A program made the position numbers and the translations under genes. The notes under the pieces were generated by a model, which worked only from the letters and a program-made list of their open reading frames with translations, had not been told where the DNA came from and did no database searches. DNA of 64,000 nucleotides from Candidatus Giovannonibacteria bacterium. GTDB taxonomy: Bacteria > Patescibacteriota > Minisyncoccia > UBA11713 > 2-01-FULL-45-33. Shown piece by piece: positions 16,842 through 59,899 of this stretch. The stretch spans positions 411,040 through 475,039 of the forward strand of contig CP066687.1 of the NCBI GenBank assembly GCA_016432405.1. Reading direction: 5' to 3'. Numbering within the stretch: the first letter of the stretch is position 1; each line of letters starts with the position of its first letter.

Positions 16842-19800
16842 TTATTGAACCACCTCCACCGTCCTTACGGCTGTCGCGCTGTTTCCGGCGCTGTCGGTCG
16901 CGGAGTAAAGAATCGTGTGCGTGGTGGTGGTTGAGGTGTCCAGCGAAAGCCCGTCTCCTTGCGAAAGTGCCGGTCCCCCATTTAAAGAAGCAGTGTAACC
17001 GAGATTTGAATCAACGTTATCCGTGACGGTTACTCCCATATCCGCGTAACTCGCGCCCACGTTAATCGTCGCCGGGTTATTTCCCAAAATTGTGATTACC
17101 GGCGGGATAACATCGGGTGTTGAAGAAGAAACACCCGATGTTGAGGAGCCGGCGGCGCCGCACGCTCCTGCTTCCGATTTCAAAACCCCATTCTCCGAAA
17201 ACACGCAGACCGGCCCGCCGGTGGCGCGGTCATAAATTGTGAATCCCTGCGGCCCGGTTACGGTGAGTTTTTGCGTTTCAATTTCCTGAACAATCAATTT
17301 TCCGTTTTCATCTATACTCCACAATCCGGAGGCCGACAAAATCTTGCGGACGTTTATGATGTCGTTATTTTGCAAATCCAAGAGACCGGTCGTTCCCAAA
17401 GCAAGCCCTGAAATCTTCGCGTTCAATTCCTGAATCGCTTTTGCCAAAACCGCGGTCAGGTTCGCGTATTTAACATTGACCGGCGTAGAGGACGCGTCAA
17501 GCGTGACCAGCCGCGGGTCAATGCCGAAAACTTCTTCCGCGATTAAACCGACCTGTTCTCCCTTAACTCCGATGTCGTCATTATAAAGGAACGATACCGG
17601 GCGCAAATTTAATACCGTTTCAAGCGCTCCGGCGCCAAGCGAATTAATGTCGTGCTTGAAACGTTGCGAAGAACCCGTGCAGGCCGCGCCATCGCTATAT
17701 GTGACTTCCTTGTTCGCGGAGAGACAGAGAGCTCCGGCTCCGGCTCCGGCCGTAAGCCCGGAAAACGCCGCCGTCCCCGCAACCGACAAAGTCCTCCACG
17801 GCGTCGTGCTTGCGATGCCGAAATCTCCTCCGTTATTAATATATGATTTGTCGGTGCTCAAAACTGGATCGGAAACAATTTTAATCACAGTATCGCCAGC
17901 TTCATTAGTCATTGAAAAACTTGCTTGCTGATTACTGTCCATGCCGAGCTGATGACTAACTGAGCCGCTTGGTCTAACTATATTAACACCGAGAGGTCTT
18001 GGTGATGTTCCTAGACCTAACTGAATTTCAAGCGCGCTTTCACTTGTCGGCACACGGCCAATTCCTACTCTTTTGGTCACGCCGTCAACCGAGATAATTG
18101 GGGGGCCTACAGTTGATGAGGTTGCGATGCTCCACGCGTTAATTACTTGCGGAATTGTTGAGGTCGCGGATTTTTGATAGGAGAAAGTCAGCGCGGCCGC
18201 GGTGCTTGAAGAATAGGTGATGAGGTTGGAGTCAAGATAAGCGTTCCCCTGCACGGAAAGCAAACTTGCCGGACTCGTCGTCCCGATGCCGACGTTGCCG
18301 GTGGTTGCTGCAACAACCAAATGGTCTGCCACGCCACCTTCTCTTATGCCAAAGTTGGTATCTGAACTAGAGTTGCTAACATTGCGACCAATGAACCAAT
18401 CTGGCCCGTCGCCAGTATCAAAATACAAACTCACACTTGCCCCAGCGCCGGTGACCGTGTTGGAAAGTCGTATTTGTGCGGGATCAGTTGTGCCCGCGTC
18501 AATGTTTAATGAATAGGTCCCGGGGTTTGCCACCCCAATACCCACATTCCCCGTAAAATATCCATTTCCCGCAACTGAAAAGAGCGAAGCCGGACTCGTC
18601 GTCCCGATGCCGACGTTGCCGCCTGTTGTTATTACAAATTCATTACCTGTAAAATCAGCGTCCTCACTAATCTTAAAGGAATCCGAATCTGAATTATCTA
18701 TGCCTGCATACCATGAAATGACATCAGGCAATTGCCAACGCAATGTCGCATCCCCCGTCCCAGCTTGTTGAATTTTAATTCCCGCCGAACCAGTAAGGGC
18801 ATCATTATTTCTTACAACGAGAGACTGGTCTGGACTCGTCGTCCCAATGCCGACGTTGCCGCTTGTTTGCTGGACCACGAATTGGCTTGTGCCGATAGTG
18901 AAGCCACCTGTCCCGAATGTACTCGTCGCTGTGCCACTCACCGCGAGCGTTCCCGTCGCCGTAAGACCCGCCACAGAAAGATTGCTGGAGAACAGCCCGG
19001 CTCCATGCACCGAAAGCAAACTCCCCGGACTCGTCGTCCCGATGCCGACGTTGCCGTTATCAATTACACTCAAAACCTCCGTAATATTTACCAAGGCGGT
19101 ACTGGCATAACCAAGACTTATTCTAGAATTAGAGCCAGTAGAAAAATTTTCAATTCCTACACGAGTACTACCGCCAGCGTTCATCGCAATCCCATTCCCC
19201 GCGGCACCATTAGAGAAATAAATCTTTGATGCCGCTCCGCCAATTTCCACTTTAGTCGTAGGATTCGCTAACCCGATGCCGACATTGCCGCCATTAAGCA
19301 GAGTTAATACAGGCGGAGTTGAAGTGGCATACGCATCAGTTGATGTTCCCACATAGAGATTCCCTCCCATTGACGATAAGAGCCAATGTTTCAGGTTTGC
19401 TCCGGCAGAAGTATCGGAAAGCGCGAAAGAAGGCCTCGTCCCCGCCGCCTGCAGGAGCCAGTTCGGCGTCGTCGTCCCGATGCCGACGTTGCCACTGATT
19501 ATTGCTCCATTAGTTGGTGGAGTGGCTCCCCCGTCAGCGTAAGTTCCCACAGCTATGCCCTGATAGCCGACAGAAAGTGAGGGGGCTGTAACTCCATTAC
19601 TTCCGGTACCTTTAAGGTCTATTCGAACAGGACCCGAATCCGAAGCGCTGGCTCCGCTCTGTACAAACCGTATTTGTGCGTACCCGTCACCCTCACTAAA
19701 AAATAGATTATTAGCATTTACACCAAGAGCTCGTATCACACCGAGTTCGTCTCCACTGGCAGTCTGAGAAAGCGTGTCTACGCTTGTTCCAACAGATTTT

Positions 19801-22800
19801 CTGAAAGACAGAGTGCCACTATGAGTTAGAGTGGCGCTGTAAGCAGATATTGTTTGGACTGTATCGGCAGATGCTCCAGCCAGTTCTAGTAATGAACTCG
19901 GGCTAGCGTCCCCGATGCCGATTCTGCCGTTTTGATTTACTCCGCCAACCACAAATGACGGCGTTGAACTTCCGGTATTTGATATCACGAACGAATTTGT
20001 CTCCGTTCCCTGTTCAACCGACAACAACCCCCACGGACTCGTCGTCCCGATGCCGACGTTGCCGCCTTCTGCAATAGACATCCTTATGGCACTTGAGCCG
20101 CCGCCTATTGGGTCTGTATAAAAGTTCAATACATTATTGGTCTCGTCCCACTGAATGTAGGCGCGGTCCACGCCATTTTCATTGAAGCGGATATTTGAAC
20201 TCCCCTCCGCACCATCTAAAATCAATTTATCGGTGTTGGCCGAATTAAAGATATGCAAGGCGTTAGCCGGACTCATCGTCCCGATGCCGACGTTGCCGTT
20301 TTCCGCCACATACAAGCTGTTGGCGGTTGCTCCGCGATTTACAACAAAAGCGGTGTTGTTGCCAACAGTAAGCCCTCCAGAAATAGTGGAAGTGGCGGTG
20401 GTGGAAGTCGCGTTGAAAATAGGGATATTGAGAGTCCCGTAGCTTGTGATGCTTGAATTAAACAATCCTCCGCCCGCCACCGAAAGCAAAGCCCCCGGAC
20501 TCGTCGTCCCGATGCCGACGTTGCCTCCGCTTAACAATGTCATCACAATAGCATCATTGATAGCAAATTGAATTGGGTAAGTGCCAGTTGATTGAAGCAC
20601 ACTTGCGTATGCAGATGCTCCTGTTAGTAATCCTCCAGTAGTGCTCCAATTTTTACCCAACTCAAATGTACCGCCAGTATTTATAATATCGATATATGCA
20701 TAGTTTGTGCCTGTAGTTGATGTGATTTTCATCCTTCCAGTTTCACTTTGAATATCAAGTGGCAGTGTTGGATTCGTCGTCCCGATGCCGACGTTACCGC
20801 CGGATGTAGCCAGATACGTTGAGCCGGTGGTGGTTAATTGCGTCCCCGAAGCATTTCCAAAAGTTAGAAGCCCAGTAACATTCAGCGTTGAAGTCGCCGT
20901 TATCGCCCCGCCGAAGAATCCCGTGCCGGAGAAGTATCCGCTTCCCTGCACCGAGAGCAATGCCCCCGGACTCGTCGTCCCGATGCCGACGTTGCCGGCA
21001 GCATTTATCGTTATAGCCGGTGTTGTAGCTAACGCTCCGAGAGGCGCGGTATAGAACTTCAAACCAGCATCGTTGTTTGTGGCACTTTGGATAAAACCGC
21101 TTATCCGACCCATTGGTAAGACATCACTCCGCTGTTTGAAGTCTATGCTTATCTCGTCATTTGCAAGCATCTGGAGGTCGGAATATGACATACTGAGCAA
21201 AGTAATTTGTGTTGCGGCTCTATTTCCCCCTACCACATCTAATTTATACAAAGGCCCCGTCGTCCCGATGCCGACGTTGCCGCCATTAGTAACTATGAAA
21301 TTCGTTGCCGTTGAAGAGCCAACCACGAATGAAGGGACACCCGCGCCAAGAGCGTTCGGATTTACCGAAAGAAGCCCCCACGGCGAAGTTGATGCGATGC
21401 CGACGTTGCCGGTGGAGGTGACATTAAAAAGCGAAGAGTCAGATGAAGAAAGGACGCGGAAAAGGTCGGCGGATTGGCTGGTAACTCCCTTGATTGTTAA
21501 AGGAATGGCGGTGGTGGAAGTAGCTCCGATTGTGAGCACGGAAAGTCCGGAGTGAGTAGTGGTGCCGAAAGCGGCCTGTCCCGCGGCCGAGAAGACAAAT
21601 CTGGTTGTGGGCTCGCTGGCGCCATCCTGAAGCCGCAAAAGGTCTCCCGAAACGGTGGAGTTCCACATTGTGTATGCGGCGCCGGTAGTGGTGGCCAAAT
21701 GAGTAATTCTTCCCTTAAAAATATGGCTGTCGGCGTTGGGGGCGTCTCCCATTGTAAATTGATTTTCAACAGTGAAGTTGGATGCGGTGGTGGAAGCCAA
21801 AGTTGTGCCGCCAACGGTGGTCAGTCCATTTGCAAAAACGTCCCCGTCAGCATCAACAAGGAAGCGAACCGCTCCGCCGACAGCTATGCCCAGAAGATTG
21901 GTATCCGCCGCCGCCGAAGCCGGATTGATGACCACAACCGAGTCCGTGACCGCGGAGTTGGCAACGCCAACAGCCCAGGTGCCGAAAGTGTGCGAAACCG
22001 TCGGGCTTTTTGTGACTAAAAGCTGTTCGGTGAGAGTCGTGGTGGAGTTTACATTCATTGAAGCGCCGGAGACGTTAAGCCCGCCGCTCGCAAGTATGTC
22101 TCCCGAAACCGAAAAAGTTGCGCTGGGAGTCGTGGTGCCTATGCCAATTCTGTAGTTTTTTGTGTCAAAAGTAAGAAAAGGAGTGACGGAAGTGGAAGTG
22201 GCGAAAGAGAAAGCGTTGATTAAGGAAGAGGCGATGGTGGTGGTGGCCTGGTTGAAGAAAGCGAGATTTCCGTAAAGAGTCATGTCCCCCGTAAGTTGGA
22301 GGGTGGAAGAAGCGTAAACGGCGCTGGCGAAGTCGGAGCGGCCGGAGACGGTAAGAGCGCCGATGGAAGCGGAAGTTGAGTTAAGCGAGGTTGAGGTCAG
22401 AGAAGCCAAGCCCGATACCGCTCCGGCTGAAGTTACGTTCCAGACGTTTGAGGTTATGGATACGTTTTTGCCTTCAGCCCCAAGAGTCACGTTTCCTGAA
22501 GCGTTTAAATTGCCGCCGGTGGAAATTCCGTTGGAGAAGTCCCCGAAAGAAGCCGAGACGCCGGAGCCGGTCTGGGGAGGAGACGAAGCGTAAGGGCCGG
22601 GGATTGAAGTCGTGAGAAAGACAACCGGATTTTGGACCTGGTTGGAAGGAAGCCGTTTTTCCAAAGCGGCAAGAGAAAGCTGGACCTGTGCCAAGACGGC
22701 TTGGTTGAGAGAAGAGAGGCGCTGGTCAAGCTCTGTTTGGGAGATGCCTGCCTTGCCGGCAGGCAGGCCGGAGACGACGCGTTCAACTACTCCGACGCTC

Positions 22801-23987
22801 GGCTTTGCCGAGGTCGGAGCCCCGACCAAAGCGTCGGGGCGGGATGGAGGTGTGGAAGTTGATTCTCCAAATGTGATAATTTTACTTCCATCTTGAGGTA
22901 AATTGGGAGCCGGAGGAGTTTCCGCGGCTTCAGGCGGTTTAACCGAGAAAAAATCCATTGCCACCAGCTTCAGGTCGCCCCCCAAAGACGCTATGTATCC
23001 CCGCCAGCCGAGGACATTGTTTATAAATCTGTCTTTAATATCCGAGAGAGAGAGTTTGGCGTCTTTAAAAGTAAAGGGCAAAGAAAAGGTAGCTCCGACG
23101 TCAGGAAGTCGGAGTCCCGACCAAAGCGTCGGGGGAAGCGAGAATTCGGGCAAAGCAAGAGCCAGCGAGGGGAGTTTGATTTCCGGCCAAGCGAAAAGTT
23201 CTGTGAGAGGTTGGAAATTTGGAAGTTGAAAAGTCGGAAGTTTGAAAGTAAGTTGAGGCAGTTTTGGTTTTGGTAAAGTTAATTTTGGAAGTTTGATTTC
23301 GGGCAGGGAGAGGGCTAGAGAGGCTCGGTCTTTGATGCTTTGAAAAACGTTTCCGAGCACTGCTTTAATGTTAACCTCACCTCCCAACCCCCTCTCCTTA
23401 CGAAGGAGAGGGGGCGGAGGGGGTGAGGTAAGGGTCTCAAAAAATCCGGCTGCAAATTTTTTCGCAGAGACAATAGAATTCCCAATTTCATCCGCGACGA
23501 CGAAAATCTCACCTGCCAACTCTTTCACGGAGACATTAATATTTTCGGTTGCATCCGCAATAGAATTTTTGATTGCGCCCGCGTTATAAAAAATCAGCAC
23601 GGCAATCAGTACTGACGAGAGAGAAGCCGCTCCCAGCGACCATTGCTTCAGAGAAAATTTCGGAAACCGAATTTTTGGAAATTGAAAGTATTCTTTCTCT
23701 TTCTCCCCCAAAATCGCCTTGTCCCACTCATCTGTTGTATGAAAGATTTCCGGCTTTGTAAGGATAACTTGCGGCTCTGTTTTCTCTTGCGTCCGCAAGA
23801 TGGATTTTTTGTAATCCAAAATAGATTTTTCGGAAACCATCCAATCGGTGCCGAATTTTTTTCCTTTTACTTTTTCCTCGCGGCAAAGCTGTCCGACATA
23901 GATGCGTGTATAGCCGCAAAGAGCCGCGGCCTCGGAAGCCGTGATATATTTTTCCCCTTCTAAGATAATTTCACGAGAATCTTTCAT
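16842..23987 (-). CDS. Giant (2381 aa) membrane-anchored fibre-like surface protein: N-terminal HTH, TM, Pro-rich linker, GNVGIGTTSP repeats, C-terminal intramolecular-chaperone (peptidase S74-like) domain, Ig-like tail
   Basis: Single uninterrupted ORF. The N-terminal ITASEAAALCGYTRIYVGQLCREEKV is an HTH. A TM segment lies at about aa 110-135. The LPKLTLPKPKLPQLTFKLPTF Pro-rich repeats follow. There are more than 12 G(G)NVGIGTTSPxxLLSV modules. The C-terminus (SSQRFKHDINSL...LRPVSFLY...GLIAEEV) matches the auto-cleaving tailspike chaperone domain. The final approximately 120 aa (PVITILGNNPATINVGASYADMGVTVTDNVD) resemble a bacterial Ig-like/DUF5011-type domain. Confidence 0.8.
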   Translation of the reverse strand: MKDSREIILEGEKYITASEAAALCGYTRIYVGQLCREEKVKGKKFGTDWMVSEKSILDYKKSILRTQEKTEPQVILTKPEIFHTTDEWDKAILGEKEKEYFQFPKIRFPKFSLKQWSLGAASLSSVLIAVLIFYNAGAIKNSIADATENINVSVKELAGEIFVVADEIGNSIVSAKKFAAGFFETLTSPPPPPLLRKERGLGGEVNIKAVLGNVFQSIKDRASLALSLPEIKLPKLTLPKPKLPQLTFKLPTFQLPNFQPLTELFAWPEIKLPSLALALPEFSLPPTLWSGLRLPDVGATFSLPFTFKDAKLSLSDIKDRFINNVLGWRGYIASLGGDLKLVAMDFFSVKPPEAAETPPAPNLPQDGSKIITFGESTSTPPSRPDALVGAPTSAKPSVGVVERVVSGLPAGKAGISQTELDQRLSSLNQAVLAQVQLSLAALEKRLPSNQVQNPVVFLTTSIPGPYASSPPQTGSGVSASFGDFSNGISTGGNLNASGNVTLGAEGKNVSITSNVWNVTSAGAVSGLASLTSTSLNSTSASIGALTVSGRSDFASAVYASSTLQLTGDMTLYGNLAFFNQATTTIASSLINAFSFATSTSVTPFLTFDTKNYRIGIGTTTPSATFSVSGDILASGGLNVSGASMNVNSTTTLTEQLLVTKSPTVSHTFGTWAVGVANSAVTDSVVVINPASAAADTNLLGIAVGGAVRFLVDADGDVFANGLTTVGGTTLASTTASNFTVENQFTMGDAPNADSHIFKGRITHLATTTGAAYTMWNSTVSGDLLRLQDGASEPTTRFVFSAAGQAAFGTTTHSGLSVLTIGATSTTAIPLTIKGVTSQSADLFRVLSSSDSSLFNVTSTGNVGIASTSPWGLLSVNPNALGAGVPSFVVGSSTATNFIVTNGGNVGIGTTGPLYKLDVVGGNRAATQITLLSMSYSDLQMLANDEISIDFKQRSDVLPMGRISGFIQSATNNDAGLKFYTAPLGALATTPAITINAAGNVGIGTTSPGALLSVQGSGYFSGTGFFGGAITATSTLNVTGLLTFGNASGTQLTTTGSTYLATSGGNVGIGTTNPTLPLDIQSETGRMKITSTTGTNYAYIDIINTGGTFELGKNWSTTGGLLTGASAYASVLQSTGTYPIQFAINDAIVMTLLSGGNVGIGTTSPGALLSVAGGGLFNSSITSYGTLNIPIFNATSTTATSTISGGLTVGNNTAFVVNRGATANSLYVAENGNVGIGTMSPANALHIFNSANTDKLILDGAEGSSNIRFNENGVDRAYIQWDETNNVLNFYTDPIGGGSSAIRMSIAEGGNVGIGTTSPWGLLSVEQGTETNSFVISNTGSSTPSFVVGGVNQNGRIGIGDASPSSLLELAGASADTVQTISAYSATLTHSGTLSFRKSVGTSVDTLSQTASGDELGVIRALGVNANNLFFSEGDGYAQIRFVQSGASASDSGPVRIDLKGTGSNGVTAPSLSVGYQGIAVGTYADGGATPPTNGAIISGNVGIGTTTPNWLLQAAGTRPSFALSDTSAGANLKHWLLSSMGGNLYVGTSTDAYATSTPPVLTLLNGGNVGIGLANPTTKVEIGGAASKIYFSNGAAGNGIAMNAGGSTRVGIENFSTGSNSRISLGYASTALVNITEVLSVIDNGNVGIGTTSPGSLLSVHGAGLFSSNLSVAGLTATGTLAVSGTATSTFGTGGFTIGTSQFVVQQTSGNVGIGTTSPDQSLVVRNNDALTGSAGIKIQQAGTGDATLRWQLPDVISWYAGIDNSDSDSFKISEDADFTGNEFVITTGGNVGIGTTSPASLFSVAGNGYFTGNVGIGVANPGTYSLNIDAGTTDPAQIRLSNTVTGAGASVSLYFDTGDGPDWFIGRNVSNSSSDTNFGIREGGVADHLVVAATTGNVGIGTTSPASLLSVQGNAYLDSNLITYSSSTAAALTFSYQKSATSTIPQVINAWSIATSSTVGPPIISVDGVTKRVGIGRVPTSESALEIQLGLGTSPRPLGVNIVRPSGSVSHQLGMDSNQQASFSMTNEAGDTVIKIVSDPVLSTDKSYINNGGDFGIASTTPWRTLSVAGTAAFSGLTAGAGAGALCLSANKEVTYSDGAACTGSSQRFKHDINSLGAGALETVLNLRPVSFLYNDDIGVKGEQVGLIAEEVFGIDPRLVTLDASSTPVNVKYANLTAVLAKAIQELNAKISGLALGTTGLLDLQNNDIINVRKILSASGLWSIDENGKLIVQEIETQKLTVTGPQGFTIYDRATGGPVCVFSENGVLKSEAGACGAAGSSTSGVSSSTPDVIPPVITILGNNPATINVGASYADMGVTVTDNVDSNLGYTASLNGGPALSQGDGLSLDTSTTTTHTILYSATDSAGNSATAVRTVEVVQ
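18276..21420. repeat. Intragenic dispersed repeat, about 24-29 nt conserved between copies (GGACTCGTCGTCCCGATGCCGACGTTGCC and variants), at least 12 copies
   Basis: Copies sit at about 18276, 18590, 18830, 19030, 19460, 20033, 20268, 20500, 20773, 20960, 21250 and 21385. They are spaced irregularly at 130-600 nt. On the minus strand each encodes GNVGIGTTSP. Confidence 0.8.
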
Positions 23988-29873: not shown

Positions 29874-31853
29874 ATGAAAAAAGCGATAATTTTGGCAGGA
29901 TTATTAATCGCCGCGATGCAGGTAAGCGCCGGCGGCGGCAATGCTTCCTTTTCGCTCCAAAAAGACAAGAGCACCGACCTTTTTATATTGAATATGCGCG
30001 ACTCCCAAGGCATCCGCAGTTTCGCCCTTGTTTTCCCGACAGACAAGCTCCCCTACAGCGGCGATCTGAACGGGTGCCCCCAAAGCCGCAAAATAGACAA
30101 TGTTTTGATAAACGAAATCTCCGATTTTAAGCCGATGATGAAAGCGGTAATCGTTGACTGCCGCGGAGAGGAAACGGAATTTGAAATAACCGCGCCGGTA
30201 GGCGGAGTGGCCCAGGTTAAAAAAGTTGAGCCGCCTCCACCCCCGCCGCCTCCGCCACCGCCTCCGCCGCCTTCTCCCCTCCCGACGCCCGCCGAAGGCG
30301 GGGTCGGGACTCCGACTACAGAAGTTTCTAAAACAAACGTTGGAGCAGCCACGCCGGCAACTTTAGAATACCCGATTAAAGAACTTGGCGGGTGCGAGAG
30401 TCAGGAGGCCTGCAAAACTTATTGCGACGCCCCGGCGAACCTTGAGCGCTGCATCGCCTTCGCCGAAACAAACGGGCTTTTAACGAAAAGTGAAATTGAA
30501 CGCGGCAAAAAATTCGCCGCGATAGTCAAATCCGGCGGCGGGCCAGGAGGATGCAAAACCGAGGCATCCTGCAAGGATTACTGCAACGACGTGGGGCGGC
30601 TTGACGAGTGCGTCGCTTTCGCGGAAAATAGCGGCCTGGTTTCCGGCGCGGAGCTGGAAGAGATGAAAAAAATTCAAAACGTCGTTAAGCGCGGGACTAA
30701 ATTCCCCGGCAACTGCACCAACCGCGCCGCCTGCGAGCTTTACTGCAAGACACCGGAGCACGCGGACGAATGCGTTGCTTTCGCCAAAGAAGCCGGATTC
30801 ATGAGCGAAGAGGAATCCAGAGAAATGGAGAAAATTCTTCCCTTAATGAGAAGCGGCCAGATGCCCGGCGGATGCACATCAAAAGAATTATGCGAGGCGT
30901 ACTGCGAAGACGAGGGGCATTTTGACGAATGCGTCGCTTTCGCCCAAAAGGCGGGATTGGTGTCAGAAAAAGAGCTTGAGATAATGCGAAAAACCGGCGG
31001 CAAGGGCCCGGGCGGCTGCCGCGGAAGGGCATGCCAGACGTTTTGCGAAAATCCGGCAAACCAGCAGGCCTGTTTTGAATTCGGCAAACAGTACGGCCTT
31101 ATCTCGGAAGAGGACTTAAGCAGAATGGAAGAAGGTAAGCGGCTCATCCGCGAACAGCTTGAAAGCGGGCCTCCGGAAGTTCAGGAATGCCTTAAGTCGG
31201 TGGTGGACGTGACCGTTTTAGAATCAGAGGGTTTCGCGGGCGGGCCGGAATTGGGCGAAAAGATGAAAGAGTGTTTCGAAAAAATGATTCCAGAAGGCAT
31301 GGAAGGGAAATTTGAGTTTGGCGCAAACGGAGAATTTAAAGGCCCGGGCGATTGCAAGTCGCGCGAGGAGTGCGAGACATATTGCACATCAAATCCGGAA
31401 GCATGCGGCGAGAGCGGTGACCGCGGCGGCGAGGAATGTGTAAAACAAGGGGGCAGTTGGAACGGCGAAACTTGTAATTTCCCCGGCAGTGATCGCGGCA
31501 CAGAAGAATGCGCCAAGCAGGGAGGAACCTGGGACGGAACAAATTGTAATTACCCCCACATTGAACGCGGCGGCGAGGAATGTGTAAAACAAGGGGGCAG
31601 TTGGGACGGGGCGAACTGCGATTTTTCTAACTCACAGCGACCCCCGCAACAGCCGCCATCACAAGAGCAATACCAGCAACAATATCAACAGCAATACCAA
31701 CAGCAGTATCAGGAAGAGGTTCGGAAGCAATGCGAATCCCAGGGCGGAGTTTGGGACGGCGCTCAATGCAAAGCCCCCACAAATTTCCAGCAACCGCCAG
31801 CGGAACTCTCGCCCGGCTCGGCGCTGGACGCTCTGTTGCGGCTGGTCAGGTAA
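29874..31853 (+). CDS. Secreted modular cysteine-rich repeat protein (novel)
   Basis: 659 aa. Signal peptide MKKAIILAGLLIAAMQVSA. A 14-residue poly-Pro run. Five modules of about 46 aa (GGC-x5-C-x2-YC-x8-EC-x-AFA-x3-GL-S-x2-E). Four EC-x-KQGG-x-W(D/N)G-x-NC modules. A QQYQ x4 tail. Confidence 0.7.
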   Translation: MKKAIILAGLLIAAMQVSAGGGNASFSLQKDKSTDLFILNMRDSQGIRSFALVFPTDKLPYSGDLNGCPQSRKIDNVLINEISDFKPMMKAVIVDCRGEETEFEITAPVGGVAQVKKVEPPPPPPPPPPPPPPSPLPTPAEGGVGTPTTEVSKTNVGAATPATLEYPIKELGGCESQEACKTYCDAPANLERCIAFAETNGLLTKSEIERGKKFAAIVKSGGGPGGCKTEASCKDYCNDVGRLDECVAFAENSGLVSGAELEEMKKIQNVVKRGTKFPGNCTNRAACELYCKTPEHADECVAFAKEAGFMSEEESREMEKILPLMRSGQMPGGCTSKELCEAYCEDEGHFDECVAFAQKAGLVSEKELEIMRKTGGKGPGGCRGRACQTFCENPANQQACFEFGKQYGLISEEDLSRMEEGKRLIREQLESGPPEVQECLKSVVDVTVLESEGFAGGPELGEKMKECFEKMIPEGMEGKFEFGANGEFKGPGDCKSREECETYCTSNPEACGESGDRGGEECVKQGGSWNGETCNFPGSDRGTEECAKQGGTWDGTNCNYPHIERGGEECVKQGGSWDGANCDFSNSQRPPQQPPSQEQYQQQYQQQYQQQYQEEVRKQCESQGGVWDGAQCKAPTNFQQPPAELSPGSALDALLRLVR

Positions 31854-50678: not shown

Positions 50679-51021
50679 AGCGATTTATATCGGCGTTGTC
50701 TCCGTGGCCGTCACCGCTCGCGCCGTTCCCGTTTTCGGGGTTTCCGTTCCCATTCCTTTCTTTTATCCCGCGTATTTTGCTGGCCGTGCGGAAAAGCATG
50801 CTTTCGGTCTTCAAAACCCAAATTCTCGCTTCCCTAAGGCGCTTTTCCAAAAACGTGAATGACCTTTCGCGCAAGTGCAAATGCCACGCCTCCGCGGCGT
50901 CGTCCACAAGCCCCTCCATAAACTCCGCGAAATTAAACGCGGCGAATTCCTCGCGGTTGCGGCGGATAATCGCGATTATCCCGCCGGCGCTCAAAAGAAA
51001 AATTATGGAGTAAAAGATCAT
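50677..51021 (-). CDS. Hypothetical membrane protein
   Basis: 114-aa ORF with an N-terminal TM and a Gly/Asn-rich tail. Weak support. Confidence 0.3.
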   Translation of the reverse strand: MIFYSIIFLLSAGGIIAIIRRNREEFAAFNFAEFMEGLVDDAAEAWHLHLRERSFTFLEKRLREARIWVLKTESMLFRTASKIRGIKERNGNGNPENGNGASGDGHGDNADINR

Positions 51022-51028
51022 GTCAATT

Positions 51029-51481
51029 TTACACCTCGTACCTTGTAAACCGCGCTACTTCTATTTTTTCCCCGAAACGCCCGATGGCGCGCTTGATTAA
51101 TTCTTCAATGCTTGTGCTCGGGTCTTTGACATAGGGCTGGGCCATAAGCGCAATAACATCCTCCGGAGCCATTCCAGCGATGTGCAGGGCCAAATCATGC
51201 GCCAGGGCCTGAAACTCCGCGTTTTTGGCCACAAAATCTGTTTCGCACCGAAGTTCAAGCAAAACCCCCACGCGCCTGTTTACGTGGATATAAGAATCAA
51301 TAACGCCGGCGCCGGTTTTGCGCTCCGCTTTTTTAAGGGCTACCGCTTCGGAAGATTTTTGGAGCAGCGCTATTGCTTTGTCCGTGTCTCCTTCCGCTTC
51401 TTCCAGCGCCTTTTTACAAAGCGCCACGGACGCCCCAGTGAGCTCCCTTAGACGTTTAACTGAATCCGCGGATACGGTCAT
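51029..51481 (-). CDS. tsf: Elongation factor Ts, short form. Start refined to [11 protein letters not shown].
   Basis: UBA-like N-terminus LRELTGASVALCKKALEEAEGDTDKAIALL. Core HVNRRVGVLLELRCETDFVAKN. Confidence 0.8.
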   Translation of the reverse strand: MTVSADSVKRLRELTGASVALCKKALEEAEGDTDKAIALLQKSSEAVALKKAERKTGAGVIDSYIHVNRRVGVLLELRCETDFVAKNAEFQALAHDLALHIAGMAPEDVIALMAQPYVKDPSTSIEELIKRAIGRFGEKIEVARFTRYEV

Positions 51482-52200
51482 AATTGTGTTGTTTGTGCTG
51501 TTTGTTCTTTCTCCCTGAGGCCCGCCTCGTAAGCCAAGGCAAGGCGGTCCAAAACCAAAGCGATTGCGGCCGAAGAGTTGTCGTTTAATGGTATGGGGTA
51601 ATTTACGTCCCGGGGGTCGCAATCAACGTTGAGCAAGGCCACAACCGGAATATTTTTTCTTTCGGCTTCCGCCAGAGCAGTTTTTTCCTCGCCCGGGTCA
51701 ACAATCACCAGCGCCCCAAGGAGGGATTTAAGGGGCCTTAACCCTCCAAACATTCTAGCAAGTTTTTTGATTTCTATCGTCTTCATCATTTTTTCTTTCT
51801 TGGAGTATTTTTCAAATTCTCCGGCTTTCTCTTCCGCTTCAAGCTTCACCAGATGCCCCAGCCGGCCCTCAAAGATTTTGAAATTAGTCAATGTCCCGCC
51901 AAGCCATCTCTCAAAAACGTAAGGCGATTTTGTTTTTTTGCCGGCGGCCTCAACATGCGCCCTGGCCGGGGCCTTTGTGCCAACCCACAAAACCGTCCCA
52001 CCGGCTTTGCCCAGCGCCCTTAAAAATTCTTCCGCCTCCTTGAGCTTGGCTTCGGTTTTAACCAAATCAAAAACCTCCACATTGTTTCTGGTCCCGAAAA
52101 CAAATTCGGACATTTTGGGATGGCGGCGCGATTTCGTATATCCGATGTGCGCACCGGCGACAAAAAGCTGCTCAATTCCGGCATTTTCCGTAATTTCCAT
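51478..52200 (-). CDS. rpsB: 30S ribosomal protein S2. Start refined to MEITENAG.
   Basis: [19 protein letters not shown] is the S2 N-terminus. LLNVDCDP in the C-terminal part. Confidence 0.9.
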
Positions 52201-52263
52201 AATACGGTTAAGTATACGCGAAAAACGTTGCAAAAGCAAGCGCGGCGTGTTAAAATGACATTT

Positions 52264-52473
52264 ATGAAAACCGATATACATCCGAAATACCACAAAGCAA
52301 AAATAGAGTGCGCCTGCGGCGCGGTTTTTTCAGTCGGCTCCGCGAAAGAAAAAATGTCCGTTGAAATCTGTTCAAATTGCCATCCCTTCTACACCGGGAA
52401 GGAAAAATTGGTTGACGCAGCCGGCAGAGTGGAAAAATTCAGGGCGAGAGCCGCTAAAAAATCTAAAAAATAA
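52264..52473 (+). CDS. rpmE: 50S ribosomal protein L31. Start refined to [10 protein letters not shown].
   Basis: 69 aa. [19 protein letters not shown]...[10 protein letters not shown] (CxxC...CxxC zinc form). Confidence 0.85.
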
Positions 52474-52476
52474 CTC

Positions 52477-53445
52477 ATGGACTTCGAACTGCAAAAAAAA
52501 CTCGATGAAGCCCTTCGAGAATACGATGCCTTGGAGATGGATGTCGCCGAAAGCTTTAAGTGGACCAAAGATAAAGTGGTGAAGTTCGGAGAGCTCTCAA
52601 AACTGAAAGTCATGGTTGACGAATACGAAAAAGCGGACGAGGCCGGAAAAAAAGATATTGAAGAAAAACTGAAAGGCATGCTGGGTCTGGCAACCGGCGA
52701 AGACGGTAAAGAGAGAAACAAAGCGATTTTGGAAATTCGTGCCGGCGTCGGCGGAGACGAAGCCGCACTTTTTGCGTCCGACCTTTTAAACATGTATAAA
52801 AATTATGCCCAAAAACAGGGCTGGTGCTTTTCCGTTTTGGACGAGTCAAAAAATGATTTGGGCGGGCACAAAGAAGCGGTCGCCGAGATAAAAGGCAAAG
52901 ACGTTTACAGCGCACTGCGCCACGAATCCGGCGTGCATAGAATCCAGCGCGTGCCGGCTACGGAGAAATCCGGCAGAATCCATACCTCAACCGCTTCCGT
53001 GGCCGTTTTACCTGCGGCGGAAGAAAAAGAAATAGAAATAAAAGAGTCAGAATTGGAAGTGAGTTTTTCAAGGGCCGGAGGGCCGGGCGGGCAGAATGTG
53101 AATAAGGTGGAAACGGCGGTGCGCCTGCTTCACAAGCCGACCGGAATTATAATATCCTCGCGGACGGAACGGTCCCAGCAGGCAAACCGCGAGCGCGCTA
53201 TGGAGATTCTTCGCGCCAAACTTTTGGATGAAAAATTGAGAAAAGAAGAAGAGATGCTCCGTAAGGAAAGAAAAGAGCAAATCGGCACTGCCGACAGAAG
53301 CGAAAAAATCCGCACCTACAATTTTCTGCAGGACCGCGTCACCGACCACCGCCTTAAAAAATCCTGGCACAATATAGAGCGTATTCTGGACGGCGATTTA
53401 GACCCGATCGTTAAGGCGTTGGGGAAGTTTCAACAGGAACCATAG
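52477..53445 (+). CDS. prfA: Peptide chain release factor 1
   Basis: 322 aa. GGQ motif ([13 protein letters not shown]) and the PAT tripeptide anticodon motif ([14 protein letters not shown]), indicating RF1 rather than RF2. Confidence 0.85.
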
Positions 53446-54850
53446 GTTCAGCAGGCAAAGCGTCAATGATACTAAACGGCGCATCGCTGTCATCCACAGT
53501 GCAGGAATAATCAGCGCACTCAACAAATATAACGTAATTACCAGAGGGGGGTAAAGATTGGCCATTTTTATCGATTAATTCAGCAAGCGGCGCGACTTTC
53601 CAGTCAACAAAACCGCTATTCGGGATGTTTTGAAAAATAATTTGTCCGAATCTGGTCGGCTCATCCAAAAGCCAAATGTTCAAATTGGCAGAAGCGGGAA
53701 CATCAGAAGAAACCCATTTAATGGTATAAGATTCGCCCGATACTAGATTCTCACCGCCATTCGGTGAGAGAATTGTTAAATAAGGATATCCCTTGGGGGG
53801 TTCAAGAGGTTCAACAGGAACGGAAGGAGGAACGGTTTTCACAATGTCTATTCTTGCATGGTCATCGACTCGCCAAGGTTTACTCTCAAGATCAACGGCT
53901 CTATAACCAAATACATCAATTACATAGTTGCCTTCTGTTAAATCTTGTGGACAATTCTCCCGAACACAAGCGAGCGTGGAGCCAACTACCCATTCAAAAG
54001 AATTTGTGCCTTTGGGAAGTTCTGGCGAAATTGACCAGACGCTGACGGTTTGTGCGTCGCCTACATAGCCAGAAATTTCTATCCCATAGGTTACAAGGTC
54101 GCCGCTGTCCTCCCATTGAAAAGTTTGTTTCTCGCCCAATGTCCAAGTTTCCCCGCCGACGGGATAAGAAAGGGTAATAAAAGAGGAAGGTAGGATATAA
54201 AAAATGCTGTCGCTGTCATCGAAGACATCATTTTGAGGAGCATCTTTATCTACAACCCGGATTGAATAATCCTTGCCGGCCGGAAGCGTATCTGGAATTT
54301 TCCACTCAAAAAAACCTTCGTTTTTAATTACATCAGAAATCATCCCTTCCGGTCCAGCATAAGTATCGTCACCCTTGCGAAGTTTTATATAAACCTGCGG
54401 AACTTGCTCGGATTCCCATTTGATAGTATAAGTTTCGCCGCCCTTCAACTTCTCACCGCCATTCGGAGTCAAAACTTTTATAAAAGCTTTCGGACGGGGA
54501 GTTTCCTCGCTCTTGGCATTTCCTCCACCTCCTCCACCTCCCCCGCCACCACCTCCGCCGAAACCAGCATAAGGAAGAGCAACCATAAAGCTGCCGCTTG
54601 CTGGCTCGTCCTTTCCGGTTTTGTTGCGCAAAACATCTTTGAGCGGTTTCGGCTCCGGCGGCCTGAAAGCCGCGGATTCAATGGACTGCGGAGCCGTTAC
54701 CTTCAGTCCGGAGGGCAGGGTAAATTCTTTCATCACTAAGTCGAAAAACGCGGCTTCGGCAGGCACAACAAAAACCGCGAGCATAATGATTAAAATCGCT
54801 GGGAAATACGGGAAATAAAGGCTTTTTTGACTAAAACTCATATTGGCCAT
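53411..54850 (-). CDS. Secreted repeat protein with Kre9/KNH-like (SPNGGExLxxGxxYxIxW) domains and a Gly13 run
   Basis: 479 aa. N-terminal TM/signal. Two or three repeats [22 protein letters not shown] / [22 protein letters not shown]. Poly-Gly stretch GGGGGGGGGGGGG. Confidence 0.55.
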
Positions 54851-54947
54851 ATGATAGCAAACTCACCCCAAAATGTCAACAACAAAAAAGAGGGCCTCCT
54901 AGATATGCCGGGGGAAGCCCTCATAAATTATGAAACTGGCGCAAAAA

Positions 54948-55322
54948 TCATTTTTCTACTATTACACTAACTTTTATGAAGGTCCCTCCTTTCCCATCTG
55001 TCATGAACTTCACCAGATAAGGGACCATCTTCCCACAGCGCCACAATTGCCAGCGCTCGGTCCACCCGCCTGTACGCAAGCCACCACCTGGGAAACGTTT
55101 GCCCTTGGGCGGTTCAATGACATCAGCCCAAAGGATTACTCTTTCTTGGCGGCAGCTTGAGTAAGCCGCCATATCTGCCAAGATTAAAATCCGTGTTGCG
55201 TCTCTCTGTAATAAAGTATCTGCCACGGAACCAGGCAATGTCCTCGGTGCCTCGCTTTGTGCTATAGAATCATCCCCCACCATTAGCGCCAGCAAGCAAA
55301 AAACCCAAACAGCCACTTTCAT
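54948..55322 (-). CDS. Small secreted protein (hypothetical). Start refined to MKVAVWV.
   Basis: Signal peptide MKVAVWVFCLLALMVG, then a 100-aa domain with no recognised family. Confidence 0.4.
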   Translation of the reverse strand: MKVAVWVFCLLALMVGDDSIAQSEAPRTLPGSVADTLLQRDATRILILADMAAYSSCRQERVILWADVIEPPKGKRFPGGGLRTGGWTERWQLWRCGKMVPYLVKFMTDGKGGTFIKVSVIVEK

Positions 55323-55394
55323 GGGATTCTCCTTTCTTAAGATCAAATCCCGTTCATTATTTAGGATATTTAGAAATTTTGCAAGGGGCGCTAA

Positions 55395-55546
55395 CGCTGG
55401 GCGAATTGCTGGAGAAGATCAATCTGCTCCTGATATTTCTGCAGGACCGCGTCACCGACCACCGCATCAAAAAATCCTGGTACAATATCCAAAATATTAT
55501 GGCAGGAAACCTTGACATAATTGTTGACGAAATAATCAGTCGTTGA
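55395..55546. pseudogene. Chimeric junction of two gene-3'-end remnants: the C-terminal fragment of gene 55866..57203 (minus) abutting a C-terminal fragment of prfA (plus)
   Basis: 55395-55432 rc encodes LQKYQEQIDLLQQFAQR*, versus the real KKYQEQIDLLQELAQR* at 55866. 55436-55546 encodes [36 protein letters not shown], versus the prfA end [30 protein letters not shown]... The first about 50 nt are nearly identical to prfA 53322-53372, then diverged. Confidence 0.6.
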
Positions 55547-55788
55547 TAGAACGCAAGTTTGTCTTTTCCGAAGATGGGCTTTTAGCCCTAGAAAAGCTAG
55601 GTGACGAACTTGGTCTAAAAGATAAAGGCGAGGTAATCAACCACGCGCTTGGGGTGTTAAAAAGCACCGTTGCGCAGATAAAAAGTGGGGGGTTGATAAT
55701 CTACACCAACCCCGATACCTGCGTCGCCAAAACGATAATTTTTGACGAGCTTGAGGCTTTACTACGCAAAGTGCCCACCACTGCTTAA
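55543..55788 (+). CDS. Hypothetical small protein
   Basis: 81-aa ORF followed by an AAACC-GCGGT-GGTTT hairpin plus a T-run. No family recognised. Confidence 0.3.
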   Translation: MIERKFVFSEDGLLALEKLGDELGLKDKGEVINHALGVLKSTVAQIKSGGLIIYTNPDTCVAKTIIFDELEALLRKVPTTA

Positions 55789-55865
55789 ACCGCGGTGGTT
55801 TTTATTTTTAGTTCTATAACAAAATCGACCGATCGGTCAGAAATGTTATATCGAATTAATTTTAT

Positions 55866-57203
55866 CTATCTTTGCGCTAGCTCTTGGAGCAAATCAATCT
55901 GCTCCTGGTATTTTTTGGCAATGGCCATGACGTCGTCGCCATAGAAGCGGTAGGCCTTTTTATTCCAATTGCTCCCGGCCAGGTATTTCATAGCGGCTGT
56001 CCACTCAGCGTTGTAATTTCCCGCTTTGGCGCCGTTGTCTTTTAGAAGCAAAGCCGCGGCCATAAACGCGTCTTTTGGTTCCCATGGCGAGGGCGGATTA
56101 TTTCCGGTGCGCCTGGCAACGGCGTTTTTATAAAGCTGCCAAGTCGTTGGGATAAACTGCGCCGGACCCATCGCTCCTCCGCAATATCCGTACCACGCTT
56201 TTTTTGAAACCGGCATAAGGTCGGGGTCCAAGCCAAGTTCCGAAGTTATCTGTAAAAACGCCTCTCTTTGCTTGGCGCACCTCGCGTGCGATAAATCTAT
56301 TCTCCAGTTTCCCTTGCCGACGTTTTGCCCAAGATTTGATTCTTCTGTAATCAGCCCCAGAAGAAACGCCGGCCGCACGCCCGTAGCTTTCTCGGCCAAA
56401 TCGGCGTATTCCAAGGCCTTTTCAAACGGGATGGACGGCGACCCGACCAAAAGGAAAAGCTGGCTCCGGATGCTTGCCGCGTTTTTTTGCTTGTCTTTGA
56501 GGACTTTTTGGTATTCGGATTCTTTCCCCTTGGTGTCTTTGAGCAATTTTTGTTTTTCTTTTTCGTTTTTCTCCAAGGCCTTTTTCTGCAATTCCTGCAA
56601 AGCCCGCAGTTCCAACTCTTCCCGCTTCTGTTCTTCCAGCTCGTCTCTGACTTTTTCCTCTTCTATTTTTAAACTGCTGAATTTCGCGAAGGCCTGCTGC
56701 AAAGACGCCTGCAGATTGTTAATTGACTGCAATTCCCCGAAGAATTCCGATACGTTGTCGTAAATCAAGGCGAGCTCCAAGGCGGAAAAATTATCGTTTT
56801 GCCTGACCTTGCGCAAAAATTCCGTAAGCGACTGCCGGGACGCGTTTATCTCGGCGACCAGCTCTTCAATATTTTTTGATTTTTGGTTTATATCTCCGAT
56901 TAATTTTTGGATGTTTAAAGTTCTGGCTTTGATTTCCAGTTTGGCTTTGGATATTTCGGCGTTCAAAATGTCTATCTCCCGCTTCAGCGAATCCGCTTCC
57001 GCCTGTTTGGCCTGAATCAATCCTTGATATTGGTCTATCTGCGTTTCGTACTCGCGGAGCTGCGTTTCCAGCTCCGCGCGGCGCGAATTAACCAGCGCTG
57101 GGTCAATCCCGTTAGAGGCGATGCCTCTAACGGGATCAACCTGGGCGTTGGCCAAAGACGCGGCAAGCAAAAAAACGCTTATTAAATTTATCAGATTACT
57201 CAT
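55866..57203 (-). CDS. Secreted coiled-coil protein with a C-terminal lytic-transglycosylase (MltB/Slt35-like) domain
   Basis: 445 aa. Signal peptide, about 250 aa of coiled coil. The C-terminal TEESNLGQN...GYCGGAMGPAQFIPTTW resembles the GxMQFMPxTW motif of family-3 lytic transglycosylases. Confidence 0.6.
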   Translation of the reverse strand: MSNLINLISVFLLAASLANAQVDPVRGIASNGIDPALVNSRRAELETQLREYETQIDQYQGLIQAKQAEADSLKREIDILNAEISKAKLEIKARTLNIQKLIGDINQKSKNIEELVAEINASRQSLTEFLRKVRQNDNFSALELALIYDNVSEFFGELQSINNLQASLQQAFAKFSSLKIEEEKVRDELEEQKREELELRALQELQKKALEKNEKEKQKLLKDTKGKESEYQKVLKDKQKNAASIRSQLFLLVGSPSIPFEKALEYADLAEKATGVRPAFLLGLITEESNLGQNVGKGNWRIDLSHARCAKQREAFLQITSELGLDPDLMPVSKKAWYGYCGGAMGPAQFIPTTWQLYKNAVARRTGNNPPSPWEPKDAFMAAALLLKDNGAKAGNYNAEWTAAMKYLAGSNWNKKAYRFYGDDVMAIAKKYQEQIDLLQELAQR

Positions 57204-57870
57204 TTTTTGGAGCGGCTTTGCCCGCCACGCCTTCTTCGGCTTCGGCTTTGGGCTTCTTGCTCAAAACTTCAATGGACTCCAAAGACGGCTCTGCGGCGGT
57301 TTCAGCCGCCTTTGGCTCTTCCTCTGCCCTCGGGGCTTCAACCACGGCAACCGTCTCAGACCGGCTATCCAACAAAGAAACCGCTGCCGGAATTTTTAAA
57401 TCGCTTATTAAAATGGAATTCCCTATGGTTTTGATGGCGGATATGTCAACGGAGATTGAGTGAGGCAGGTCATTCGGCAAGGCCTCGATTTTAAGAGAGT
57501 GCAAGACTTTAACCAAAACTCCCCCGGCTTTCACAGCCTCCGACTCTCCGACGAACTCCAAAGGCACGTCAACACGGATTTTTTTGTGCATATCCACCGC
57601 GTAAAAATCAGCGTGAACGGGCGTATCTTTTAAAGGGTCAATGGCAACGTCGTGTATCAGCACGTTTCTTTTATGCCCGCCTAAAACCAGCTCAATAACG
57701 GTGGATTCTCCGGCAAACCTCCAAGTCCTGTTGAAATCCGACTCTTTTACCGAAATCGGCTCCGCCGCCTTGCCGCCGCTATAAACCACGGCAGGCAAAA
57801 AGCCCTTGCTGCGCAAGATTTTTACTTTTTTACCCAAAATATCCCGCTTTTCGGCAGTTATTGACTGCAT
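57196..57870 (-). CDS. rplY: 50S ribosomal protein L25 / general stress protein Ctc
   Basis: 224 aa. N-terminal L25 domain (EKRDILGKKVKILRSKGFLPAVVYS) plus the Ctc C-terminal domain and an acidic tail. Confidence 0.85.
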   Translation of the reverse strand: MQSITAEKRDILGKKVKILRSKGFLPAVVYSGGKAAEPISVKESDFNRTWRFAGESTVIELVLGGHKRNVLIHDVAIDPLKDTPVHADFYAVDMHKKIRVDVPLEFVGESEAVKAGGVLVKVLHSLKIEALPNDLPHSISVDISAIKTIGNSILISDLKIPAAVSLLDSRSETVAVVEAPRAEEEPKAAETAAEPSLESIEVLSKKPKAEAEEGVAGKAAPKNE

Positions 57871-59356: not shown

Positions 59357-59899
59357 TTAAAGACTAAAAAAATTACGTAAATTTTCGTCTTCAGTAATTT
59401 TCGCGGACTCTATCGCTACTAAATGGTTATCCAGATTAAAATCGCTCCACAAATCAAAGAAGTCTTTGGGCAAAGGATATGGATACGCCCAAACGCTTTT
59501 TTGAAGCTGGTAAAATCCAAAATCTTGCAATTCTTTTCTGAAAAAATCCCGACGCGCGCGGATACGCTCCGGAATATCAAAAATTAAGAGCCGCCATTTG
59601 CCGTCCCACTTCTTCGCTTTAGCCAGTTTTAGTTTGAGAAAAATCCTATCTGCTAATTTTTGACCCCTCTTCGTAAGAGAAAACGCTACTCGCCCGCCTT
59701 TCTGTCTTTCGCCAACTATTAAATCACGACTTCTTAGGCGATCAATGGCATTGCGGAAAGAACGTTTATTGGCGTGTTCGCAAAAAGTATGATAATAAGG
59801 ATGCGGCCAAAATGATTCAATAAAAATTTTACTTACCCCGCCGAGTATTAAAAGCGCGGCATCAGATAAAGTTGGCTCATAGATTATCCTTTTTCTCAT
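59357..59899 (-). CDS. PaaX-like regulator-domain protein (winged helix plus PaaX_C-like WDGxW...DIPE...QxSVW segment)
   Basis: KWDGKWRLLIFDIPERIRARRDFFRKELQDFGFYQLQKSVWAYP matches the PaaX C-terminal domain pattern. The gene is flanked by TCCGATCGT direct repeats and CAGTGTAT/ATACACTG inverted repeats. Confidence 0.45.
   Translation of the reverse strand: MRKRIIYEPTLSDAALLILGGVSKIFIESFWPHPYYHTFCEHANKRSFRNAIDRLRSRDLIVGERQKGGRVAFSLTKRGQKLADRIFLKLKLAKAKKWDGKWRLLIFDIPERIRARRDFFRKELQDFGFYQLQKSVWAYPYPLPKDFFDLWSDFNLDNHLVAIESAKITEDENLRNFFSL

Follow-up and report, generated by a model that had tools for sequence, protein, structure and literature searches.

The window analysed here, a 64-kb stretch of a Candidatus Giovannonibacteria genome (Candidate Phyla Radiation, CPR; Patescibacteria), contains a 2-kb segment flanked by duplicated gene ends directly behind prfA, the gene of the release factor RF1, and this segment is probably an ordinary recombination scar and not an integrase-driven mobile island. 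The gene order of the region, tsf-rpsB-L31-prfA followed by the convergent genes TG-L25-2-hydroxyacid dehydrogenase, is kept in many relatives; TG denotes the minus-strand gene of an SLT_2 lytic transglycosylase, and the prfA-TG intergenic interval is referred to as the slot. We consider it likely that the prfA-TG cassette of another Giovannonibacteria lineage was copied into the same slot by integrase-independent recombination. The features on which this reading is built, the first of them an open reading frame (ORF), are the following:

52477–53445, plus strand: prfA (RF1, 322 aa), ORF with Pfam PCRF/RF-1 match, assigned as a chimera with a native body to about 53375 and the last about 24 codons imported.
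53323–53375, plus strand: first copy of a 53-nt duplicated prfA segment ("a..x"), identical to 55436–55488 at 50/53 positions; the homologous exchange would lie within or ahead of it.
53376–55435, no strand: segment of 2,060 nt assigned as imported, with two secreted-protein genes between the new prfA tail and the final 14 codons of the donor TG; not in the relative L010.
55391–55438, minus strand: TG remnant of donor type, last 14 codons and stop, 75% identical to 55866–55913.
55436–55442, no strand: illegitimate junction assigned between the TG remnant and the prfA remnant, with 3–7 nt of microhomology.
55436–55546, plus strand: displaced native prfA 3' end, a gene fragment of the last 36 codons and stop, with a match in L010.
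55866–57203, minus strand: intact TG (Pfam PF13406); the N-terminal part is a coiled coil and the 3' end is of native type.

The closest relative, L010 (amino acid identity of 89% for prfA and 92% for TG), was collinear with the window on both sides of the segment, 50720–53375 corresponding to L010 6239–8899 and 55864–58868 to L010 8954–11961. The nucleotide identity of the working prfA region to L010 was 87.8% over 2.7 kb and stopped exactly at 53375. In L010 the prfA and TG stop codons are separated by one base and the island is absent, so that the uninterrupted convergent junction which the original prediction had presumed to be ancestral does exist in a relative. The slot was also empty in L013, L014, L018, L020, L022 and L026.

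The direct repeat of the prfA end (53323–53412 and 55436–55525) showed 78% identity over 90 nt, the first 30 nt (53323–53352 and 55436–55465) being identical, and the second copy remained in frame up to a stop at 55546. The distal part of this displaced tail contained 34.5% GC as compared with 47.4% in the window. These data agree with what had been predicted from the letters, namely a second copy of the last about 36 prfA codons with a nearly identical start of about 50 nt and an AT-rich distal part. The 30-nt core occurred twice in the 64 kb (none expected from 100 shuffles), and the prfA and TG pairs were the sole gene-end repeat pairs of such kind within the window. A dispersed repeat of the repetitive extragenic palindromic (REP) type, about 30 nt long, had been named as one explanation that would undo the prediction; it was ruled out, the two copies, the only ones in the window, both being in frame with gene ends.

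The duplicated-end structure is real and no assembly artefact. The sequence 53201–56000 was recovered with 100% identity in Logan assemblies from separate sequencing runs, four Logan contigs (L001, L002, L005 and L006) fully crossed the junction, a fifth (L007) covered it from 54703 onward, and the same genes were present on a 651-kb NCBI contig. Since the organism is known from metagenomes only, and the ends of some Logan contigs fall close to the 53-nt repeat (55476 is the last position of L002 and 55447 the first of L008), two coexisting strain haplotypes of the prfA-TG spacer could be thought to have been wrongly joined. Such a chimera is extremely unlikely: the junction between TG stub and prfA tail was 100% identical in the contigs of several separate runs as well as in the NCBI contig, the exact repeat is just 30 nt long, and, because neither parental haplotype contains the junction sequence, the junction must have read support.

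Comparison of the separate pieces with the same locus in relatives showed that the two prfA ends are of different ancestry. The prfA body was nearest to L010, with 92% amino acid identity ahead of the tail. Past the switch, the working tail matched L094/L095 at 43/52 nt, L091 at 42/52 and L092 at 39/52, as compared with 26/52 for L010, while the remnant tail was nearest to L011 (37/52), followed by L013 (33/52) and L010 (30/52); over 55436–55516 the displaced tail was 88.9% identical to L010 8847–8927. Of the 40 nearest RF1 proteins, with a body identity of 74–92%, 35 had a C-terminus that fits the remnant tail better than the working one, and the remnant C-terminus NIQNIMAGNLD.. agrees with that of the native clade (..NIQNIMSGNLD..). 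The clear exceptions among the 40 were P0058 and P0062, and in both a Kre9-like gene overlaps the prfA 3' end. The remnant carries a tyrosine in place of the histidine of the otherwise invariant SWHNI position, a substitution which suggests relaxed constraint on the displaced tail.

An analogous result was obtained for TG. The TG repeat (55391–55438 and 55866–55913) showed 75% identity over 48 nt with the minus-strand frame kept, the encoded ends being YQEQIDLLQQFAQR and KYQEQIDLLQELAQR, respectively. The stub was nearest to the TG end of L092/L093 (38/45) and matched the window's own TG at 33/45 positions; the working TG 3' end was nearest to L010 (38/45). On account of these lineage affinities of the prfA and TG ends, the remnant at 55436–55546 was assigned to the displaced native terminus and 53376–55435 to imported DNA, and the prediction that recombination within the prfA 3' end had moved the old terminus to the far side was upheld: the remnant is of the relatives' C-terminus type and the working end is the imported one. 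The diverged copy of the TG end beside the prfA remnant was likewise confirmed, its limits being corrected from 55395–55432 to 55391–55438. The two remnants had been described as lying tail-to-tail; in fact they touch at 55435/55436 by their truncated 5' sides and their stop codons face outwards, although their order is, as proposed, the topology of a tandem duplication or of a circular intermediate.

The genes of the imported segment and their candidate promoters are:

53411–54850, minus strand: sec479, secreted Kre9/KNH-like protein with immunoglobulin (Ig)-type repeats and a Gly13 run (Pfam PF10342, 2.3e-20).
54851–54879, minus strand: promoter-like site of sec479, TTGACA-17-TATCAT with TG extension, from a consensus scan (11/12 matches).
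54948–55322, minus strand: sec124, an ORF for a small protein with a signal-peptide-like N-terminus, called as a gene in Logan contigs.
55356–55384, minus strand: promoter-like site upstream of sec124, TTGCAA-17-AATAAT, from a consensus scan (9/12 matches); weak evidence.

In other lineages the same type of cassette is part of the chromosome. Kre9-like secreted proteins were found in the slot of the window, L091–L095 and L101. The order in L092 is dehydrogenase-L25-TG, a small ORF, a Kre9-like gene and then convergent prfA, and in L091 and L093 the Kre9-like gene stands against prfA in the same manner. The best full-length homologues of sec479, P0002 and P0003, are located in this slot in L091 and L092. 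The 3' end of sec479 overlaps that of prfA by 35 nt (53411–53445); the corresponding overlap was 47 nt in L091 (4275–4321), 44 nt in L092 (10261–10304), 26 nt in L094 (2483–2508) and 26 nt in L095. The overlapping C-terminal tails of the Kre9-like protein and the opposite-strand prfA tails were homologous in the window, L091 and L092. Within these convergent overlaps of 26–47 nt the same DNA codes for one C-terminus on each strand, and the two are jointly conserved from lineage to lineage. The imported type of prfA tail accompanied the Kre9-like gene in all seven loci that carry the latter (window, L091–L095 and L101), of which L092 and L093 contain the same protein P0003. No second prfA tail was found in L091–L095, and no second TG end in L092 and L093. 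Since gene order, orientation, prfA overlap and matching gene ends are the same there, the island corresponds to the normal slot content of another lineage and, since the cargo overlaps the prfA 3' end, the Kre9 cassette moves only together with a prfA tail.

The sec479 protein has a signal-like N-terminus, two Kre9_KNH Ig-like domains and the Gly13 run at residues 98–110, and no viral relatives were found when it was compared with viral contigs. For sec124 there was no Pfam or PHROG match and no similarity to the small proteins of L091 and L092. A cell-surface role may be suggested for both products, and the two promoter-like sites are candidates from consensus matches. The domains, the run and two N-terminal hydrophobic segments bear out the initial description of a Kre9-like repeat protein and a small signal-peptide protein; the small ORF which had been placed in the same intervening DNA actually lies past the remnants (81 aa, 55543–55788), between the displaced prfA tail and TG. 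The GC content of the island, 46.5%, is without anomaly as compared with 47.4% in the window.

The perfect 30-nt direct repeat flanking the segment, the element-borne 3' end that restores the gene with displacement of the old one, as at attachment (att) sites in tRNA or tmRNA genes, and the repeated use of the same gene end in L011 would be expected of an integrative element that was inserted site-specifically at an att core in the prfA 3' end, carried a replacement end and either lost its integrase or was served by one in trans. Such an origin, which had been put forward in the original prediction, is nevertheless very unlikely. Neither a tyrosine nor a serine recombinase was detected when the ORFs of the island and the 20 largest ones in 29.8–63.7 kb were scanned against Pfam and PHROG, nor was a recombinase found among the slot cargo genes scanned in relatives; the absence of an integrase between prfA and the remnants had already been noted from the sequence. 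The cargo and both imported gene ends are ordinary chromosomal slot content in other lineages, the breakpoints in L011 differ from those of the window, and an att model does not account for the TG stub directly abutting the core. Since the core encodes the near-universal RF1 motif RVTDHR, its identity is accounted for by protein conservation, and the different start positions of the displaced tails of L011 speak against a fixed att core. Of four properties looked for in an att island, the direct repeat was found, whereas a recombinase, a core or breakpoint shared among events and mobile cargo were not. Slot synteny, the variable breakpoints of L011 and a joint at 3–7 nt of microhomology argue against site-specific integration.

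Three prfA tails were present in the slot of L011, at 8838–8951, 9914–9998 and 10332–10360, the two displaced ones beginning some 40 nt and some 85 nt farther toward the 3' side than that of the window. This arrangement looks like two successive displacement events with breakpoints unlike the window's. One PaaX/Cas2-like and one NUDIX gene, together with an ORF of 89 aa, lie between the copies. In L097, a matching JGI contig and apparent duplicate of L011, the first remnant was located at 7906–7968. Displaced prfA tails were found only in the window and in L011/L097 when about 85 genome loci were scanned and 80 metagenome loci were searched by tblastn with the remnant peptide. A weak match in L062 was rejected, being EF-Ts.

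The present structure can be divided into two units, of which unit 1 (53323–55435) comprises a prfA tail, sec479, sec124 and the TG stub, and unit 2 (55436–55913) a prfA tail, the 81-aa ORF (orf81), a terminator, a palindrome and the real TG end. In the reading that we favour, the prfA of the ancestor would have ended in a ..NIQNIM.GNLD.. C-terminus and been separated from convergent TG by a small ORF, a terminator and a palindromic element; in the donor lineage the genes of a small secreted protein and of a Kre9-like surface protein would have run in the direction of TG, the 3' end of the Kre9-like gene overlapping that of prfA. The direction of transfer and the exact crossover point are inferred. 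The first joint would have been a homologous exchange in the highly conserved prfA region, at or upstream of about 53368–53376. The second would have been illegitimate, codon −15 of the donor TG being joined directly to recipient prfA codon −37 at the microhomology of 55436–55442; of this, TTT is common to the window's own TG, and for a donor TG with the L014 reading ..GCGCAGAAATAT.. the shared stretch would grow to as much as 7 nt (TTTCTGC). The left part of the product would be a complete chimeric prfA with two imported secreted-protein genes, each with a promoter-like site upstream, and the right part the stub of 14 donor TG codons, the native prfA tail of 36 codons in its displaced position, followed by the native module, and the intact native TG. 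Two routes can be proposed for the entry of the DNA, homology-facilitated illegitimate recombination (HFIR) of a linear fragment, plausibly by natural transformation, or insertion-duplication, in which a 2.1-kb fragment closes into a circle and enters by one Campbell-type crossover. Conservation of the com genes throughout CPR has been reported, and Saccharibacteria can be transformed naturally (PMC10633639); competence-based uptake of DNA in CPR is plausible.

Several points weigh against such a transfer. Both 53-nt copies, which differ from each other at three positions, were nearest to L010 (51/53 and 50/53) and are thus native-like, so that neither a simple circle from a distant donor nor a simple linear HFIR event fits as it stands; one would have to assume, for example, that the prfA body of the immediate donor was close to that of the window. 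The support from competence comes from the literature on CPR and Saccharibacteria, the recombinase scan was confined to the 64 kb in the extent given above, the nearest sec479 homologue is just 51% identical, and sec124 had no counterpart in the donor-type genomes examined. The immediate donor or pre-insertion haplotype was not found; when an ancestral RF1 reconstructed from the window body and the remnant tail was compared with 5.8 billion proteins, the best match was the window's own protein (97%), followed by that of L010 (90%).

The native-like state of both copies would be expected if the convergent prfA/TG ends had first undergone a tandem duplication of about 160 nt by microhomology slippage, and an ordinary double crossover with donor DNA had later put the Kre9 cassette in the place of the first unit. 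The two-unit topology is indeed that of a tandem duplication, and the identity between the stub and the real TG is highest beside the junction (26/29 at 55410–55438) and lower toward the stop. A simple tandem duplication fails, the units being homologous at their ends only, without similarity between the interiors 53446–55390 and 55547–55865. In the two-step form, the right homology arm for the second step would be merely about 29 nt, the junction ..GATATTTCTGC.. suits a donor-type TG (AAATAT) better than the native ..GGTATTTTTTGG.., two rare events are invoked where one suffices, and the bare short duplication was seen in no relative. We therefore regard this sequence of events as improbable.

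The closest parallels to a single transfer from another lineage are the C-terminal displacement arrays of Rhs, contact-dependent inhibition (CDI) and type VI secretion system (T6SS) effector-immunity loci (Jackson 2009; Kirchberger 2017, PMC5361080), for which HFIR has been proposed as the mechanism. As in those arrays, a constant 5' part (here the L010-like prfA body) has gained a new 3' end of other ancestry (the tail of the cassette lineage) with linked downstream genes, the old 3' end has been pushed downstream with a piece of the conserved region (the 53-nt segment), a recombinase plays no part, and orphan ends pile up with repeated events, as exemplified by the three tails of L011/L097, the window corresponding to one event. 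The recipient here differs in being an essential housekeeping RF1 gene, where those arrays have a polymorphic toxin; the new tail serves the same function as the old one, without the logic of an immunity gene, its co-transfer is forced by the convergent 3' overlap with the cargo, and a stub of the gene on the opposite side, TG, is also left.

With HFIR the scar shares one DNA end anchored by homology and another joined in non-homologous DNA at a few bases (TTT up to TTTCTGC) with no site-specific enzyme. The more usual outcome of HFIR is a deletion in the recipient rather than a target duplication, whereas here a 53-nt target duplication was produced; moreover, what counts as "foreign" DNA comes from the orthologous slot in a related lineage, and the process is deduced from a natural scar in an uncultivated CPR bacterium and not from an experiment. 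Experimental HFIR in natural transformation concerns Acinetobacter, Streptococcus pneumoniae and P. stutzeri (de Vries and Wackernagel 2002; Prudhomme 2002; Meier and Wackernagel 2003), as these studies are cited in PMC5361080 and PMC3240628. Campbell-type insertion-duplication would likewise leave direct copies of the target segment on both flanks of the insert, with the topology expected from a circularised donor fragment, but no replicon or circle is known here. Such an integration would be expected to leave a reciprocal mosaic, the first copy changing from recipient to donor type and the second from donor to recipient type; the 53-nt copies have three differences, and both are nearest to L010. 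Integrase islands at the 3' ends of tRNA- or tmRNA-type genes resemble the scar in the insertion within a 3' end, the imported end that restores the gene and the displaced fragment, and differ from it in that no integrase was found, independent events have no common core and the cargo is syntenic in relatives. What is seen here is a known process in an unusual host, a CPR bacterium, and on an unusual target, an essential release-factor gene.

The part of unit 2 between the displaced prfA tail and TG contains:

55543–55788, plus strand: orf81, an 81-aa ORFan taken as part of the native module; it starts at a TTG that overlaps the stop codon of the displaced prfA end.
55777–55809, plus strand: terminator-like hairpin and T-run after orf81, from a consensus scan, resembling those downstream of prfA in L011, L096 and L100.
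55822–55852, no strand: palindrome resembling a promoter, TCGACCGATCGGTCA..TATATC, located just past the TG stop, with a single exact match in the window.

The layout of small ORF, terminator and palindrome recurs in the native-clade loci L011, L096 and L100, which supports a native origin of unit 2. Alignment of the terminator with that of L011 gave a score of 34, as compared with a mean of 15.7 and a maximum of 27 for shuffled sequences, and its conserved form is ..AACCGCGG[CT]GG..TTTT. The palindromic element, of the general form TTGACCGATAGGTCA with a 16-nt spacing to TAnnAT, was present twice in L011, once in L100 and in a variant form in L096. Terminator and palindrome together span 55777–55865 in the window, 9097–9180 and 9885–9912 in L011, about 1205–1290 in L096 and about 1125–1215 in L100, and were seen only in the prfA-TG slot of native-clade genomes; the element of the window is directed into the 3' end of TG (antisense). 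Its interpretation as an att site or a general promoter found no support, the element being confined to the slot in a few native-clade loci. An Rfam scan of 52000–57500 gave nothing beyond a sub-threshold chance match to a microRNA.

For orf81, a putative gene, the sole match among 5.8 billion proteins was itself, and there was no Pfam or PHROG match. The first ORF 3' of prfA varies between loci (55543–55788 in the window, about 8983–9081 in L011, about 1002–1180 in L096 and about 880–1097 in L100), those of L011 and L096 encoding short Cys-rich peptides. Since this ORF changes while the prfA end and the terminator on its flanks are conserved, the position of orf81 is a small variable cassette position.

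Some other features of the window were recorded. A PaaX_M/Cas2-like gene (59357–59899, minus strand) is located between the genes of fructose-bisphosphate aldolase and 2-hydroxyacid dehydrogenase, which are adjacent in L092; it is of the same family as the slot cargo of L011 and may be another variable insertion. In a 2,381-aa ORF (16842–23987, minus strand), which probably encodes a large repeat-containing surface protein, a conserved 30-nt motif (GGACTCGTCGTCCCGATGCCGACGTTGCCG) occurs about 14 times, the spacing varying irregularly between 129 and 744 nt. Three tandem 72-nt repeats with 68–86% identity (31418–31624, plus strand) lie within a 659-aa ORF (29874–31853) for which there was no Pfam match. 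Finally, 8422–8512 and 13696–13786 (91 nt, 76% identity) belong to the minus-strand ORFs 7489–8541 and 12787–13800 (about 340–350 aa), which are probably paralogues to judge from this similarity.

The slot content in relatives ranges over Kre9-like proteins, NUDIX proteins (L011, and a related 305-aa ORF in L012), histidine phosphatase (L015, with similar ORFs of about 180 aa in L016 and L019), PaaX/Cas2-like proteins (L011, and by sequence similarity L100), membrane proteins and variable small ORFs; the unannotated ORFs with hydrophobic N-termini in L017 probably encode membrane proteins. It is tentatively suggested, as a possibility that falls short of being probable, that the prfA-TG slot is a recurrent site of recombinase-free exchange and stacking of cassettes, with the conserved gene ends as homology anchors. 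By analogy with the Rhs and T6SS toxin loci, use of a single anchor may displace and retain the previous prfA tail, and the overlap with a surface-protein gene may make the RF1 tail hitch-hike.

The result removes a candidate novel integrative island, the att-like repeats being the homologous gene ends of two lineages. It offers a clean, datable case of a streamlined CPR genome that gains cell-surface genes from relatives without mobile-element machinery, and the essential RF1 gene became a chimera incidentally, owing to the overlap of its 3' end with the cargo gene. With the triple tail of L011 also taken into account, the prfA-TG slot is suited to measuring homologous versus illegitimate recombination in Patescibacteria, the genetics of which is just beginning. 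If the slot is indeed a recurrent site of recombinase-free cassette exchange, its scars would testify from nature to HFIR of the transformation type among CPR bacteria that have not been cultivated.

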